From: an uncultured delta proteobacterium
Lineage (GTDB): Bacteria; Desulfobacterota; Desulfomonilia; UBA1062
DNA length: 64,000 nt
Direction: 5' to 3'
NCBI GenBank assembly: GCA_963785235.1
Contig: CAWAUM010000001.1
Coordinates: 640,001 to 704,000 of the forward strand
A program made the translations under genes and the position numbers. The notes under the pieces were generated by a model that saw only the letters and a list, made by a program, of their open reading frames with translations, was not told where the DNA came from and searched no databases. Of this stretch, positions 17,045 to 43,949 are shown in pieces (positions within the stretch are counted from its first letter, which is position 1; every line of letters starts with the position of its first letter).

Positions 17045-17099
17045 GGGTCTGACATAGAGTTATTTAGCGGATGCTTCATTGTTCGCCACAGGCGTATAT

Positions 17100-18930
17100 A
17101 TGAATGAAAATTCCCTGACAAGTCTGAAAACCATCTTCGGGTACGAGTCTTTCAGGCCCCATCAGCGCGAGGTCATCGAGGGGCTCATCGAAGGTCAGGA
17201 TGCCTTTGTCCTTATGCCCACCGGCGGCGGCAAATCGCTGTGCTACCAGATACCGGCCCTGCACCGTGCAGGCGTGGGCATCGTGGTTTCGCCCCTGATC
17301 TCTCTCATGAAGGATCAGGTCGATGCCTTGAGGGCCTGCGGCGTAAAGGCGGCCTTTTACAATTCCTCCCTGGAAAGCGCCGAGGCCAGGAGCGTGCTGG
17401 CCATGCTGCACGGCCAGGAACTGGACCTCTTGTATGTCGCCCCGGAGCGGTTGATGAGCGATGAGTTTGTCGAGCGGCTCCGCGATATCCCCATCGCCCT
17501 GTTCGCCATTGACGAGGCGCACTGCATCTCCCAGTGGGGGCATGACTTCAGGCCCGAATACCGGAAGCTGGGCAGGCTCCGCAGCCTGTTCCCCCAGATC
17601 CCCATGATAGCCCTGACCGCAACGGCCGAGACGCATACCCTTAAGGACATCCTGGAACGCCTGGGCCTGCAGCAGGCCCGGTGCTTTATCTCAGGGTTCG
17701 ACCGGCCCAATATCCGTTATACCGTGGTTGAAAAACAAAGACCTTTTGCCCAGTTGAGCGCATATCTGCAGGCCAACCCCGAAGGGGCGGGCATAGTATA
17801 TTGTCTGAGCCGTAAACGGGTGGACAGGGTGGCGGACCAGCTCGTCCAGGCGGGTTTTATCGCAGCTCCCTACCATGCGGGTCTTACTGCAGGGCAACGA
17901 AAGAAGACCCAGGACGACTTTCTTCACGACGATATCCGCATCATCGTGGCCACGGTAGCTTTCGGCATGGGCATAGACAAGTCTAATATCCGCTTCGTGG
18001 TGCACTACGATATCCCAAAAAACATCGAGGGCTACTACCAGGAGACAGGCCGTGCCGGACGCGATGGCCTTGCCGCCGAGGCACTGCTGCTGTTCAGCTA
18101 TGGAGATATAGCCATTGCGCGCGAGCCTGATCGAGAATACGAGTGATCCCGATCAGAAACGCATCGAGGTGCACAAACTCGGCACCATGGTAGGTTTTGC
18201 CGAGGCCTTGAGCTGCAGGCGCCGCATCCTTCTGGGCTATTTCGGCGAGCGCCTGGAGCACGATTGCGGCAATTGCGATATATGCCTGCACCCGAGAGAG
18301 CTTGTTGATGTCACGGAAGATGCACGCAAGGCCTTGTCCTGCGTCTTTCGTGTGGGGCAGCGCTTCGGCATGGCACACGTAATCGATGTGCTGCGCGGTT
18401 CCAAGAAAGAGAGGCTCATGGAACTCGGTCACGACAAGCTTTCCACCTACGGGATCGGCGCGGACAAGGGCCAGGAATACTGGAGCAGCCTGCTGCGCCA
18501 CCTGGTTCACCACGGGTTCCTTTTGCAGGACGTGGGTGATTATTCGGTGCTCAAGCTCACCGCTTCAGCCTGGCCTCTGTTGCACGGCGAAAAGAACCTC
18601 ACCATGGCGGAGCCTCGTGTTCGTGTAAAGGCGGAGCCGGCGCCCAAGCGCTCCCGCCGGAAGGCCGGGGACATGGAGTATGATCACGGCCTGTTTGAGA
18701 TACTGCGTGTCCTGCGGAAAAAACTGGCTGATGAAGAAAAAGTGCCGCCTTTTGTCATCTTCAGCGATGCCTCCCTTATCCAGATGGCTGCCGGTCATCC
18801 CGCCACGAGTGAAGAGCTGCACCTCATCCACGGGGTGGGCGACTACAAGCTCGAACGCTATGGCCCCCATTTCCTCGAAGCGATACGCAGGTTTTCAGCC
18901 GGCAGCGGGGCAACAGGGAATGATGCATAA
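17100..18930 (+). CDS. recQ: ATP-dependent DNA helicase RecQ, frameshift near 18120
   Basis: MPTGGGKSLCYQ, DEAHCISQWGHDFRP, QETGRAGRDG; second frame has the Zn/RQC motif CRR..L.YFGE..CGNCD.C and HRDC. Confidence 0.95.
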
Positions 18931-34653: not shown

Positions 34654-35380
34654 GGCGTCTTATAAGGCAGCTTGTAAGGGATGAGCATGGGCACCCTTTT
34701 CTGGTATTCTTGGTACTCCATCGCCGAACTCACTGACAAGGTCGCGCTCTTCCAGGACCGTGCCTGCAATGATCCAGATTGTCCACATGAGGTTGAAGAG
34801 CAGCCTGTCGGCAGTGAGTACGGGGCAGGACCAGAACATGATCAGTGAAAAGAAATAGAGGGGATGCCTCACCCATTGGTAGGCGCCCTGGACCTTCAGC
34901 GGCATCTGCACGGATATCCTTTTCCCTCATGTGTCGTCTTATGGCCTTGACCCCCAATGGATCGAATGACCCCAGCGACCTGGTCCCCCAGGAGAACCCT
35001 GCTATGCACAGGAAAAACAGCATGCGAAGGAGCCAGTAGGATGCACCCTCTGCTGTAAAAAGAGGTGCCGGGGTCTTCTGCCAGAAGAGCATCACTATGA
35101 GCAGGGCCATGCCTGATGTAAGGGCATAAAAGGCGCTATAGAATATATCAGGGATGATCCCTGCAAGCCGCTTCCGGACGGGCTGTCTGACCATGATGCT
35201 GTGCTGGAGAAAGAAGAGCAAAGACAGGCCTGCATCCAGAAGCAAGGACTGCCCAGTGTTCAATCCAAGGTCGAGTATGGTGAACGATCCCAGGAAGAGG
35301 AACAGGGAAAACAGCATCAGTGAACCGAGACCGAAAGACATGGTTGCATAGATCAAAATATTGGCTTTAATCCTGCTCAT
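34650..35380 (-). CDS. MddA/ICMT/PEMT-type membrane methyltransferase, frameshifts near 34915 and 34718
   Basis: 'FFLQHSIM.R', 'GAYQWVRHPLY', 'LTADRLLF', 'GT.LEERDLV..FG..Y..YQ..VPMLIP'. Confidence 0.85.
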
Positions 35381-35405
35381 AGTGACCTCGATGGCCATCG
35401 CTGCA

Positions 35406-35663
35406 TCAGGCCTTTGTATTTTCACTGCCTTGTGTGCCACAGCAGCCTTTCGTGAATTTAGAGAAGTCCGTTTGGCCGCAGCATGACTTGATTCCCTCGG
35501 GCATGCCTTTGCACATGTCCTTGAATTGAGACATCATGGATGCCATGTTTTTGCAGCATGCCTCCATCTGTTCCTTCATCTTCGACTTGTCTCCTTCGGG
35601 CATGCCCTTGCAGCACATGTCCATCATGAGGCCGAACATCTTTTCCTTGTTTCCTTTCATCAT
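35406..35663 (-). CDS. small Cys/Met-rich metallothionein-like protein
   Basis: GGAGG RBS; 85 aa with four CC pairs, one further Cys, many Met and repeated CKGMPEG. Confidence 0.7.
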   Translation of the reverse strand: MMKGNKEKMFGLMMDMCCKGMPEGDKSKMKEQMEACCKNMASMMSQFKDMCKGMPEGIKSCCGQTDFSKFTKGCCGTQGSENTKA

Positions 35664-35775: not shown

Positions 35776-36048
35776 TTACTCCTTTCTCTGGTTCAAAGAG
35801 CGATTCGTCCGGAAATTTCTTCCCCTTGCCAGGGTGAGGGCAATAATGGCAAAGCCTGCAACCAGCAATGCAACCGGCCAGAACAGTTCCGGGTCGAACC
35901 AGCCGGCCCTTGTGGCCAGCCAGAGTGTCCCGGCCAGGATAAGCATGATCCCGAACCCCATCCCGCAATAGCGGGGGGCATGTCCCATTATGGGTCCGCA
36001 GCAGCCGTACACCGTACTTCCTTCTCTGGGTCTCTCGGCATGCACCAT
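35776..36048 (-). CDS. small two-TM membrane protein with N-terminal GCCG motif
   Basis: AAGGAG RBS before ATG 36048; 'YGCCG..RYCG', 'GIMLILAGTLWL...GW....FWPV.LLV.G'. Confidence 0.75.
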   Translation of the reverse strand: MVHAERPREGSTVYGCCGPIMGHAPRYCGMGFGIMLILAGTLWLATRAGWFDPELFWPVALLVAGFAIIALTLARGRNFRTNRSLNQRKE

Positions 36049-36095
36049 AATTCTACTCCTTTCTGCCCGGGTGTCGGGCAATGAATATTAGTTAA

Positions 36096-36144
36096 TTCGA
36101 TATATATCGAAATATCTAATAAGCCCCCTGCACGTGATTGTCAA
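36096..36144 (-). promoter_or_regulatory. sigma70 promoter plus ArsR-type operator of the downstream operon
   Basis: TTGACA(36144-36139)-17 nt-TATTAG; perfect palindrome TTCGATATATATCGAA at 36096-36111. Confidence 0.8.
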
Positions 36145-36214
36145 TACCTTTTGTGAAAAAAATTCAGTGCAGGGCTAATTCAGAGTAAAATCTGTTAAGT
36201 GGTCTGGTCGCCGT

Positions 36215-36548
36215 TCAGGGTTTGTCCTTGCCGGTGAGGTATCGGACCATCGAACTGATGGTCTCTTCATTCGCTGTTCAGAGGATCGATTGGCCTTGCC
36301 TCTCGCAGCGGACCAGGTGGGCCCGTCTGAGTTCCTTGATATGGTGAGAAATGGTGGACGGGGCAATACAGACAGCGTTCGCAACCGCACATACGGCAAG
36401 CCGGTTGTCGCCGTCAAGTTGCGCCTTCCCGCAGCCTGCAGCGGATCTGCTCGAAGATGGACAGGCGGTTCTTGTTTGACAGTGCCTTGAAGGCCTCCGC
36501 AAGGGCTTCCATGTCAAGGGGCGTTTCCTCGTTCTTTGTTGTGGGCAT
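36215..36548 (-). CDS. ArsR/SmtB-family regulator, candidate selenoprotein (in-frame UGA 36280-36278); one 1-nt frameshift near 36438
   Basis: 'AEAFKALSNKNRLSIF', 'IAPSTISHHIKELRRAHLV..ERQGQSIL[UGA]TANEETISSMVRYL'; AAGGAG RBS. Confidence 0.85.
36245..36277 (-). promoter_or_regulatory. candidate bacterial SECIS element
   Basis: After the UGA: 14 nt, then GACCAUC-AGUUC-GAUGGUC; loop 21 nt from the UGA with GU at loop positions 2-3. Confidence 0.6.
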
Positions 36549-36584
36549 GACATCTCCTTAAGCTGAGCAGGTTCGAACAAGCAT

Positions 36585-36637
36585 TTCGATTATTATCGAT
36601 ATGTCGAAGATCTAAACTCTTTCTTTCGTTGTGTCAA
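36585..36637 (-). promoter_or_regulatory. sigma70 promoter plus autoregulatory ArsR-type operator
   Basis: TTGACA(36637-36632)-17 nt-TAGATC; overlapping TCGA-spaced palindromes TTCGATTATTATCGAT and ATCGATATGTCGAA at 36585-36608. Confidence 0.75.
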
Positions 36638-42626: not shown

Positions 42627-43949
42627 TCAATCGGGAGAAAAGTTTTCAGGTTTAGAGTTGATCTTATCAAGAACGATAACAAGCGCCAGCCCTAAGACCG
42701 CTAGCCCTGACTCCATGTACAAGGCGTACGTAAATCCGCCGGTAAGCTCTTTTACACGTGCGAAGACAAAGGGCCCTGCAAAGCCCGCAAATCCGCAGGC
42801 GGTAAATATTACACCATAGATCTTGCCGATATTCAAAGGGCCGAATTCATCGGCAGCCAGCGCGGGCATCGTTGCCATGGTACCACCGTAGCAGGCAAGG
42901 AGGTAGAAGCACAGGACAGCGAATATGAAAGTGGTGTTCACATGGGCAAGCAGGGCAAAACCGAGAGCAAAGGAGATGAATATGAGGGCAAAGACCGACT
43001 TTCTCCCGATGAAATCAGATAGCCCAGGCCCAGATGAGCCTGCCAAGGCCGTTGAATATGCCTGCAATGGCCACAATAGTACCGGAAACCAGTAACAATA
43101 GATTTCATCTTCTCATCGGATATTGCACCTCCATAAGCCCTGATCATGACATCCTGTGCTATGGGCGAGAGTTGGGATATCAGGCCGAGCCCGGCAGTGA
43201 TGCTGACAAAGAGCATCATCCACAGGACCCAGAACCGGGGCGTACGCACGGCCTCGGCAAAAGAAGATGAGGCTGGAAGGATCGTGGCACAGGCGGATGA
43301 AGCTGGAGTCCTTATCCGGGGACCACCCATCCGGTGGGTTTACAAGGGTCAGCGCGGCGGTCAGGACCACAGCTAGGCTCAGCAAACCCCACATATAAAA
43401 GGTATTGGCGACCCCATACTTCATTATGAGCACAGGGCCGATATTGCCCAGGGCGAAAGCCCCCAGGCCGTAGCCCATCACGGCAAGACCGGTAAGCTGG
43501 CCACGCTTGTCCGGGAACCACCTGATAAGCGTGGCGATGGGGGTCACATATCCGAATCCTCCCCCTAGCCCGGTTATGATCCCGTAGGCGATTATGAGCA
43601 GGGTGATACTCCTTATACTGTTCGCTACCCCTGCCAGAAGAATCCCCGTGCCGAACAAGATGCCGCCCAGAGAGCCGATGATCCGTGGTGCTATGCGGTC
43701 CACCAGTGTGCCGCCAAAGGCAACGGCCGCTGCGAACATGGCACTGTTTACCATGAAGGCGTACTGGGTCTGGGTCTCACTCCATCCATTAGCAGCCATC
43801 ATGGGTTTTTTAAATATGGACCAGGCATATACTGTTCCAAGACAGAACTGCATTACGATGGCTGAAGCTGCAACAGATCTCCGCCTTGAGGCAGGATCTT
43901 TCATGATGGATTTTCCATAAGAGAGGTAAAGACCATATTCATTATTCAT
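42627..43949 (-). CDS. OFA-family (oxalate/formate antiporter-like) MFS transporter, two frameshifts
   Basis: 'LGTVYAWSIF', 'WFPDKRG..TGLAVMG.G', 'SDFIGRK', 'CYGG....PA...D.FG....GKIYG'. Confidence 0.9.

Follow-up and report, generated by a model that had tools for sequence, protein, structure and literature searches.

The question was addressed whether an in-frame TGA in a gene for an ArsR-family transcription factor ends the protein or is read as selenocysteine (Sec). The gene, arsR(Sec), is located on the minus strand of a 64,000-nucleotide stretch from the genome assembly GCA_963785235.1 of an uncultured delta proteobacterium (contig CAWAUM010000001.1, positions 640,001 to 704,000). This whole stretch is called the window, and the positions given are those of the window. 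An initial annotation, made from the letters of the window, had proposed a Sec-containing sensor on account of the UGA and a hairpin behind it. The comparison with homologues makes it likely, with good confidence, that the TGA is a conserved Sec codon and that the gene belongs to a new selenoprotein family, an ArsR/SmtB variant with Sec in the wing. Sec coding is supported by the pairing of UGA with Cys codons among the homologues, a translated tail behind the UGA, constraint on the hairpin as RNA and the presence of the Sec machinery.

Layout of the arsR(Sec) gene

The gene and the elements on which the argument depends are as follows (AF2, AlphaFold2 model; SECIS, selenocysteine insertion sequence).

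36215 to 36548, minus strand: arsR(Sec) gene, with ATG at 36548-36546, putative Sec codon TGA at 36280-36278 and true stop TGA at 36217-36215
36278 to 36280, minus strand: in-frame TGA read as Sec on account of the homologue column, placed in strand beta2 of the wing by AF2 and the alignment with CzrA
36218 to 36277, minus strand: 20 codons after the UGA (TANEETISSMVRYLTGKDKP), predicted helix alpha5 of the ArsR fold, from protein-level conservation and the AF2 helix
36245 to 36263, minus strand: SECIS-like hairpin, with 5' arm at 36263-36257, loop AGUUC at 36256-36252 and 3' arm at 36251-36245
36439 to 36441, minus strand: one-base insertion that breaks the frame, FEQIR(S/A)GCGKAQLD becoming FEQIRCRLREGAT and a stop

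On the minus strand the frame around the UGA reads ...STISHHIKELRRAHLVRCERQGQSIL-TGA(36280-36278)-TANEETISSMVRYLTGKDKP-TGA(36217-36215). The open reading frame (ORF) from the ATG at 36548 gives MPTTKNEETPLDMEALAEAFKALSNKNRLSIFEQIRCRLREGAT and stops at 36414. The helix-turn-helix (HTH) part is held in a second frame, open only from upstream of about 36440, which gives ...GCGKAQLDGDNRLAVCAVANAVCIAPSTISHHIKELRRAHLVRCERQGQSIL and then passes the TGA at 36280-36278 and TANEETISSMVRYLTGKDKP to end at the TGA at 36217-36215. The window fragment matched the Pfam family HTH_5 (ArsR) with an E-value of 2.4e-05 and 24.6 bits, just above the cut-off of 22. Together with the translation of the frame, this match confirmed the ArsR frame with an in-frame UGA at 36280-36278 that had been described initially, and the positions of the 7-bp stem GACCAUC/GAUGGUC, its 14-nt spacer and the AGUUC loop starting 21 nt after the UGA were also found to be correct. 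Intact relatives have 107-116 amino acids (most of them 110-111), and the full-length loci continue for 17-22 codons past the UGA compared with 20 in the window.

The stop column in homologues

Homologous DNA was collected from 401 genomes of the phylum, a collection with one genome per species and metagenome contigs. The codon at the UGA column was read wherever the HTH motif could be placed, giving 178 rows from 175 of 182 loci; the loci without a row are L038, L041, L110, L134, L174, L175 and L177. The locus of the own genome (L025) and the window itself were excluded from the counts. The codons or residues in the column were distributed over the 178 rows as follows.

TGA: 65
TGC: 67
TGT: 27
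Ile: 11
Val: 3
Ala: 3
Leu: 1
Tyr: 1
TAA or TAG: 0

Every stop in the column is TGA (65 of 65, from 65 loci with 58 distinct DNAs), with no TAA or TAG. The same genes end in TAA in 31 cases, TGA in 19 and TAG in 13, the true stop being unclear in 2. Since the column stop is always TGA and the true stops are mixed, the pattern is not the one expected of a nonsense lesion or of an ordinary terminator. L134, which is outside the column count, likewise has a stop there with the conserved tail behind it. Cys, encoded by TGC or TGT, occupies the column in 94 rows, among them forms with 85-100% identity to Sec forms (L125). The alignment thus bore out the pairing of Cys with UGA for which the initial annotation had asked, and the motif R.GQ...C that it had given for related ArsR proteins agrees with the presence of Cys in 94 of the 178 rows.

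The same picture was obtained at the protein level. A search with the read-through translation matched 123 database clusters, and among the matches listed, 118 of 120 have 73-94 amino acids and cover 64-73% of the query. When 20 clusters were fetched, 18 were found to end exactly at ...CER.GQ[ST]IL. The other two continue, P0038 with Cys and P0037 with Trp at the site, then QP.EETIRMMVKYLTG; their tail, QP(V/M)EETIRMMVKYLTGDHK, is clearly the same as that of the window. The Trp of P0037, seen as protein sequence only, may come from a TGG codon or from a TGA translated with a table in which TGA is Trp (table 4). Clusters named by NCBI are labelled as ArsR/SmtB transcription factors, and both gene callers and the NCBI annotation give proteins of 86-94 amino acids that end at the UGA.

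Translation past the UGA

The 58 distinct Sec-form DNAs were compared codon by codon behind the UGA. Leu at +14 is kept in 58/58 through six different codons, Tyr at +13 is spelled TAC in 25 and TAT in 31, and Gly at +16 is spelled by four codons. The tail of the Sec forms therefore combines amino-acid conservation with synonymous change in the frame of the UGA and is closed by a second stop. As amino acids that are kept while their codons vary freely point to translation in that frame, coding evidently continues downstream of the UGA in the family. The uninterrupted Cys forms share the same C-terminal tail.

The hairpin as a probable SECIS element

Within the hairpin the codon usage of the 58 Sec DNAs is frozen. 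Thr at +6 is ACC in 58/58, while all four Thr codons are used elsewhere in the gene; Ile at +7 is ATC in 53/53 and Val at this place GTC in 5/5, while ATT, ATA and ATC are all common for Ile elsewhere; Arg at +8 is AGG in 48/48, with five to six Arg codons in use in the rest of the gene. Among the sequences printed, those with Ser or Gly at +8 have AGT or GGT/GGG there. With AGG, AGT and GGT/GGG at +8, the second loop base stays G whatever the amino acid, and this loop G (column 26) is invariant in 56/56 distinct sequences.

Among these 56 sequences the six core pairs of the stem are formed in 93.9% of cells. Pair 22-32 is AU in 51 and GU in 5, pair 23-31 is UA in 46 and UG in 10, and the basal pair is GC in 18, AU in 13, CG in 3, GU in 1 and unpaired in 21. 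The covariation score was reached by 0 of 500 shuffles. The element of the family has a stem of 6-7 bp and a 5-nt loop R-G-K-N-N, and the hairpin lies 14-15 nt downstream of the UGA. This geometry matches what is seen elsewhere in the same genome: the SECIS of the fdhA copies consists of a 6-7 bp stem and a loop GGUCU starting 18 nt after the UGA, and the loop starts after 20 nt in selD and after 21 nt in arsR (7-bp stem). The homologue L060 has the loop GGUCU, as in the fdhA elements.

Close Cys forms gave a complementary view. The loop G is absent from L024 and L151 (loop AAAAU) and from L057 (loop AAGAU), and the closing pair is lost in L166; such decay is as expected once the constraint is lifted. 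In the youngest Cys form, L125/L172 (TGC, up to 85% identical to Sec forms), the hairpin is still present. The initial annotation had suggested looking for the same UGA and hairpin in related genomes, and both were recovered there and in metagenomes: 56 distinct sequences share the frozen synonymous sites and the unchanging G of the loop. Taken at the level of the family, these comparisons indicate that the hairpin is under selection as RNA; its significance arises only through the comparison of homologues.

Selenocysteine machinery

The genome holds selB (profile match), selA and a tRNA-Sec scored at 77 bits, a selD with one in-frame TGA, and several fdhA-like genes, each with an in-frame TGA. 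The genes selA, selB, selC and selD, which had been named as a check, are thus all present. In the genomes carrying the TGA form, selB scored above the curated cut-off in 8/8 tested (G000, G394, G082, G239 and G402-G405).

Two genomes with close Cys forms were compared with them. G180 (TGT, same genus code as G082, 98% complete) holds only two remnants of selB at G180:C11:54184-54572, corresponding to profile positions 2-49 and 534-580, the latter with a TAG, while its congener G082 has an intact selB together with the TGA form. A strict link between loss of selB and the Cys form was considered and rejected; it fits G180 and fails in G401, the second genome tested, so that G180 is a single suggestive case.

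Fold, Sec site and placement in the family

Four full-length relatives passed the NCBIfam model NF033788 (ArsR/SmtB) with 56.8-64.9 bits at a cut-off of 55. The structure was modelled with AF2 for the intact relative L062 (110 amino acids, mean predicted local distance difference test score 78.7) and not for the frame-broken copy of the window. The model has the order H-H-(E-E)-H-H-E-E-H. The initial annotation had expected the codons after the UGA to supply the final ArsR helix, and the model gives a helix at 94-105 in that place, the alpha5 which closes the fold. Foldseek matched CzrA, ArsR and SmtB with a probability of 1.00 and template modelling scores of 0.55-0.68 when normalised to the query and up to 0.82 when normalised to the target. 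The best Protein Data Bank matches by sequence or fold were CzrA (1r1u/6cda), the As(III)-responsive ArsR (6j05), SrnR, NolR, CadC and SmtB, with HlyU and SqrR among the fold matches.

The two wing strands of L062, 79-84 with C81 and 87-92 with U90, are joined by a turn of two residues. The Sec column aligns with the Tyr of GQSMIYSL in CzrA, at the end of wing strand beta2. Two Cys residues are invariant in the Sec clade, namely Cys81 in beta1 and Cys53 in the first turn of alpha3; outside the Sec clade, the partner Cys in beta1 is found only in the nearest Cys forms. From the strand register, Sec90 is predicted to face Cys81 directly across the beta-hairpin. The alpha3 Cys stands just after a short strand that is expected to pair with beta2, and the topology would therefore bring it near Sec90.

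Membership in more narrowly defined families was tried and rejected. The matches reached 36.3-37.7 bits against TsoR (NF045707, cut-off 115) and 17.7-20.4 bits against BigR/SqrR (NF040642, cut-off 155), and those to SdpR, CmtR and Rv2640c were all far below the cut-offs. NCBIfam release 20 has no dedicated model for this Sec-ArsR subfamily.

The tree was built from 174 rows, rows with short flanks being excluded. The 62 Sec rows need 4 label changes on it, against a mean of 50.8 after shuffling. On this tree the Sec forms make up a single clade, in which a few Cys forms are nested as reversions; the surrounding family is much larger and retains Cys in the column. Sec forms are found in metagenome-assembled genomes (MAGs) labelled Syntrophaceae/Smithella, Desulfomonilia, Spirochaetota and 'Bacteriovoracaceae'.

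Two further branches of Cys forms were noted. A wider one (L026-L033, L065-L077, L176, L188-L204) has five Cys residues, SCCxPGTxC ... CVG ... C at the wing column, and occurs in MAGs of Dehalococcoidia, Chloroflexota and Desulfobacterales. The other, with ...GKFLIC(K/R)VNE, belongs to Bacillota (Firmicutes) such as Desulfosporosinus, Sporomusa, Pelosinus, Clostridium and Paenibacillus. We know of no characterised member of either branch.

Operon and operator-like repeats

The gene is followed on the same strand by genes for thiol-rich and membrane proteins, and repeats are found on both of its sides.

36584 to 36608, minus strand: operator-like repeats TTCGACATATCGATAATAATCGAAAT upstream of arsR, with a TTGACA box at 36637-36632
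36096 to 36111, no strand assigned: perfect palindrome of 16 nt, TTCGATATATATCGAA, in the spacer that separates arsR from the next gene; a TTGACA precedes it at 36144-36139
35776 to 36081, minus strand: small membrane protein whose N-terminus bears a CC motif, with a transmembrane region like that of LiaI/LiaF (Pfam PF18917, 27.1 bits)
35406 to 35663, minus strand: Cys/Met-rich protein of 85 amino acids with several CC motifs (window ORF list)
34660 to 35440, minus strand: membrane methyltransferase of NnrU/PEMT/ICMT type, MddA-related, in two frames (35440-34730 and 34911-34660)

The context was counted in 66 Sec loci, made up of 65 and the window. A homologue of the CC-motif membrane protein (about 92 amino acids) is the next gene on the same strand in 49/66, small Cys/Met-rich proteins of about 85 amino acids are found in 24 + 13 of the 66, and a homologue of the NnrU/PEMT/ICMT-type methyltransferase is found in 31/66. 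The window holds all three. No Pfam or NCBIfam family above cut-off was found for the Cys/Met-rich protein. The neighbouring methyltransferase was tried as the methanethiol S-methyltransferase MddA (NF045656), its best-scoring NCBIfam relative; the genes of two relatives gave 58.5 and 122.4 bits (the latter in L052) against a cut-off of 270, which makes it a relative and not a member of that family. A literature search for MddA together with selenium gave nothing useful.

Repeats of the type TTCGACATATCGATAATAATCGAAAT are kept in the Desulfomonilia-type loci and in other lineages. The palindrome at 36096-36111 is unique within the 3.9-Mb genome; repeats of its type are present in other Sec loci. 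AT-rich inverted repeats of the form ATATTTCGA-ATATAT-TCGAAATAT stand behind TTGACA boxes, in front of arsR as well as in front of the genes downstream, and similar repeats are seen in loci of Desulfomonilia, Smithella and Spirochaetota type. The repeats and the gene order together correspond to the usual layout of an autoregulated ArsR/SmtB operon, the operator itself being a prediction. The thiol-rich products and the MddA-like methyltransferase would make sense in a cell responding to thiophilic or chalcogen stress.

The extra base of the window copy

The extra base at about 36439-36441 is absent from 8/8 aligned homologues, among them L063, which is 92% identical. Contigs from four sequencing runs were found to represent relatives of 85-99% likeness; the four that cover the site (from three runs) are each one letter short at 36439, 36440 or 36441, and the rows listed showed no difference at 36278-36280. 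The search of sequencing runs gave a best share of sampled words of 0.16, with no RNA run among the matches. As to the indel near 36438, which the initial annotation had advised verifying in raw reads, the relatives compared lack it. Further single-base indels between the relatives' contigs and the window were noted at 36059, 36064, 36148, 36155, 36194 and 36212, that is, in the intergenic part and at the start of the CC-motif gene.

Split genes are present elsewhere in the assembly, which consists of 13 contigs. A RecQ helicase on the plus strand (17079-18930) is divided into DEAD and Helicase_C at 17079-18146 and RecQ_Zn_bind, RQC and HRDC at 18115-18930, so that the change of frame must fall near 18115-18146. 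An MFS transporter on the minus strand (42627-43949) is distributed over two or three ORFs, with MFS_1 positions 8-203 at 43113-43949 and 55-180 at 42627-43076. One fdhA copy on C3 (G000:C3:58786-61701) was matched in five pieces in differing frames, reflecting either an indel-rich assembly or a decayed copy. The splits in RecQ, the MFS transporter, the methyltransferase and fdhA point to an assembly prone to indels, and the extra base in arsR(Sec) is probably an assembly error. The earlier statement that most other lesions of the window are indels agrees with the splits in RecQ, the MFS transporter and the methyltransferase; these favour a noisy assembly more than they bear on the TGA itself.

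Proposed mechanism

In the mechanism that we propose, SelB and tRNA-Sec would decode the UGA with the aid of the hairpin, giving a full-length repressor of about 110 amino acids. Selenium would accordingly be incorporated into the ArsR protein, as the comparative evidence suggests. A dimer of the repressor would sit on the inverted repeats TTTCGA-N6-8-TCGAAA, which overlap the promoters of its own and the downstream genes, and would keep the operon repressed. Sec90 (L062 numbering), Cys81 and Cys53 could form a soft and highly nucleophilic S/Se site. A thiophilic metal(loid), a reactive sulfur or selenium species or an oxidant would then bind, bridge or oxidise Cys81-Sec90, possibly together with the alpha3 Cys; the wing would be distorted, the DNA released and the operon derepressed. 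The support for these stages decreases from the decoding of the UGA, which the comparison shows, through repression by the bound dimer, deduced from what is usual in the family, to the sensing site, deduced from its position and conservation. A second role is compatible with this one, in which the UGA also makes the repressor dependent on the selenium supply. The chances that Sec has this specific sensing mechanism are judged to be about even.

A wider proposal is put forward tentatively and with clearly lower confidence. The protein may be the first selenoprotein transcription factor, using the Cys-Sec pair of its wing as an ultra-sensitive and reversible sensor of chalcogen species (sulfide, persulfide, selenide) or soft metal(loid)s in Desulfobacterota-type and Spirochaetota genomes. 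It would control a small detoxification operon whose last gene encodes an MddA-like methyltransferase acting to volatilise thiols or selenols, and the operon's expression would also be coupled to the selenium status, since the repressor can be completed only when selenium is at hand.

Weighing of the alternative explanations

Several observations count against the assignment of Sec or narrow its scope. The support comes from sequence comparison, in which the metagenome sequences share ancestry and do not count as independent. By itself, the window's hairpin is no better than chance, its 61-nt fold having -13.6 kcal/mol with z = -0.36 and 63 of 200 shuffles being as stable, and an Rfam scan of 36100-36400 with E up to 10 gave no match. 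Changes in the core pairs are one-sided (wobble) only, compensatory double changes being restricted to the basal pair, which is open in 21/56. The stem also overlaps the conserved residues T-I ... M-M-V, and part of its conservation is hence at the protein level. The Cys form of G401 coexists with selB. The proximity of Cys81, Sec90 and Cys53 is a matter of strand register and not of distances, and the effector, a thiophilic metal(loid), a chalcogen species or an oxidant, is a candidate only. Finally, the copy in the window is frameshifted and would make no regulator if the insertion is real.

The last point leads to the explanation that the copy is a real pseudogene within a Sec-encoding family, its operon being constitutively derepressed or decaying after the 1-nt insertion. 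The insertion is present in the assembly, the downstream methyltransferase is likewise split between frames, and no run holding this strain was found (best word share 0.16). All the same we regard a pseudogene as unlikely, given that the base is missing from every homologue and every relative's contig that could be compared at the site (8/8, one of them L063, and 4/4), that RecQ and an fdhA copy are split too, as would fit an indel-prone assembly of 13 contigs, and that no further decay is seen past the break, where the TGA, the hairpin, alpha5 and the stop are intact. If the TGA were a true stop, the gene would make an 89-aa product without alpha5 and the conservation downstream would be that of a terminator or attenuator hairpin or another RNA element. 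This is what the 86-94-aa proteins annotated by gene callers and NCBI would imply, and a hairpin could in principle act as RNA; we consider it very improbable, because the 65/65 TGA in the column contrast with the TAA 31, TGA 19 and TAG 13 of the true stops, about 20 codons are conserved as protein with synonymous variation up to a second stop, and the uninterrupted Cys forms carry the same tail. No U-tract follows the hairpin, and an ArsR fold without alpha5 would lack the dimer interface, according to general knowledge of SmtB and CzrA.

Hardly any weight is given, to the same degree, to a reading of the UGA as a standard amino acid (Trp, Cys or Gly) by near-cognate decoding or a reassigned code. 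The W at the site in P0037 would suit it. Against it stand the 19 of 65 genes that end in TGA, showing that TGA is a stop in these organisms, the SECIS-like hairpin selected as RNA and placed as in fdhA and selD of the same genome, and the selB in 8/8 carriers. A different proposal, which the initial annotation had raised as its second suggestion, accepts Sec and changes its purpose: the UGA would be a selenium gate and not a sensor, the 89-aa product made without selenium lacking alpha5 and being unable to dimerise or repress, so that the operon tracks the selenium status. Although the UGA immediately precedes the dimerisation helix and the methyltransferase of the operon is related to chalcogen (methanethiol) methyltransferases, this proposal taken by itself appears improbable. 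Across a much wider family, 94 rows have Cys in the column and 19 another residue, which speaks for a functional importance of this residue, as with other pairs of Sec and Cys, and the invariant partner Cys of beta1 is specific to the Sec clade and the nearest Cys forms. The gate and the sensor are compatible with each other. The preferred reading thus remains that of a conserved Sec codon in the wing of an ArsR/SmtB regulator.

Novelty and significance

Table 1 of the 2026 inventory of prokaryotic selenoproteins (PMC13188914) comprises 119 families and subfamilies, and no ArsR, HTH or DNA-binding regulator is named in that table. Its sole 'regulatory' entry is the FmdB zinc-ribbon family, the others being enzymes, redox proteins, transporters and metal binders. 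As far as this inventory goes, the initial remark that DNA-binding regulators are not among the well-known selenoprotein families is upheld. The term 'ArsR' is absent from the available text of the 2022 selenoprotein review and of the BSepDB paper. A full-text literature search, which included PMC9312934, PMC13326102, PMC11672702 and PMC13188914 and had supplementary tables outside its scope, found no paper on an ArsR/SmtB selenoprotein.

A DNA-binding Sec repressor would extend the use of selenium to gene regulation and would give the ArsR/SmtB family a sensing site of a new type, located in the wing. For annotation it would mean that more than 100 public protein clusters, NCBI entries included, are recorded as truncations (89-90 amino acids) without the dimerisation helix. 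The natural Sec/Cys pairs, some with more than 85% identity, are ready material on what Sec gives a sensor beyond Cys, and one of the Cys forms sits in a genome (G180) in which only selB remnants were found.

Comparison with known systems

The predicted Sec-ArsR shares the fold order alpha1-alpha2-alpha3-alphaR-beta1-beta2-alpha5 with CzrA, SmtB, CadC and the As(III)-responsive ArsR, and it shares with the ArsR/SmtB metalloregulators the autoregulatory layout with an inverted-repeat operator. It differs from CzrA by an insert of about ten residues between alpha2 and alpha3. The Cys at the start of alpha3 is presumably common with the 'CVG/CVC' of SmtB and CadC. It differs from the metalloregulators in that conserved chalcogen ligands are placed in the wing (the beta1 Cys and the Sec/Cys at the end of beta2) besides alpha3, and in that one of the ligands would be Sec. 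To our knowledge, no ArsR/SmtB site with such wing ligands has been described.

BigR, SqrR and HlyU, the thiol-based sensors of reactive sulfur species or oxidants, have the same fold, and their action would be similar if the Cys/Sec pair of Sec-ArsR forms a selenylsulfide or polysulfide bridge that lowers the affinity for DNA. BigR and SqrR carry their cysteines outside the wing, in alpha2 and alpha5, and we know of no Sec in BigR, SqrR or HlyU. TsoR (NF045707), the fourth-best NCBIfam match, is an ArsR/SmtB regulator named for a selenoprotein operon; it was compared by model name only, and this name is silent on Sec in the regulator itself.

Like the known bacterial selenoprotein families, the arsR(Sec) family combines an in-frame UGA with orthologues that have Cys, a downstream hairpin carrying a G in its loop, and selABCD. 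A lineage bias to Desulfobacterota-type anaerobes is common to both, and the metal(loid) theme is also shared, the entries in Table 1 of PMC13188914 including MerT-like proteins, HgcA/B, ArsM and metal-binding selenoproteins.

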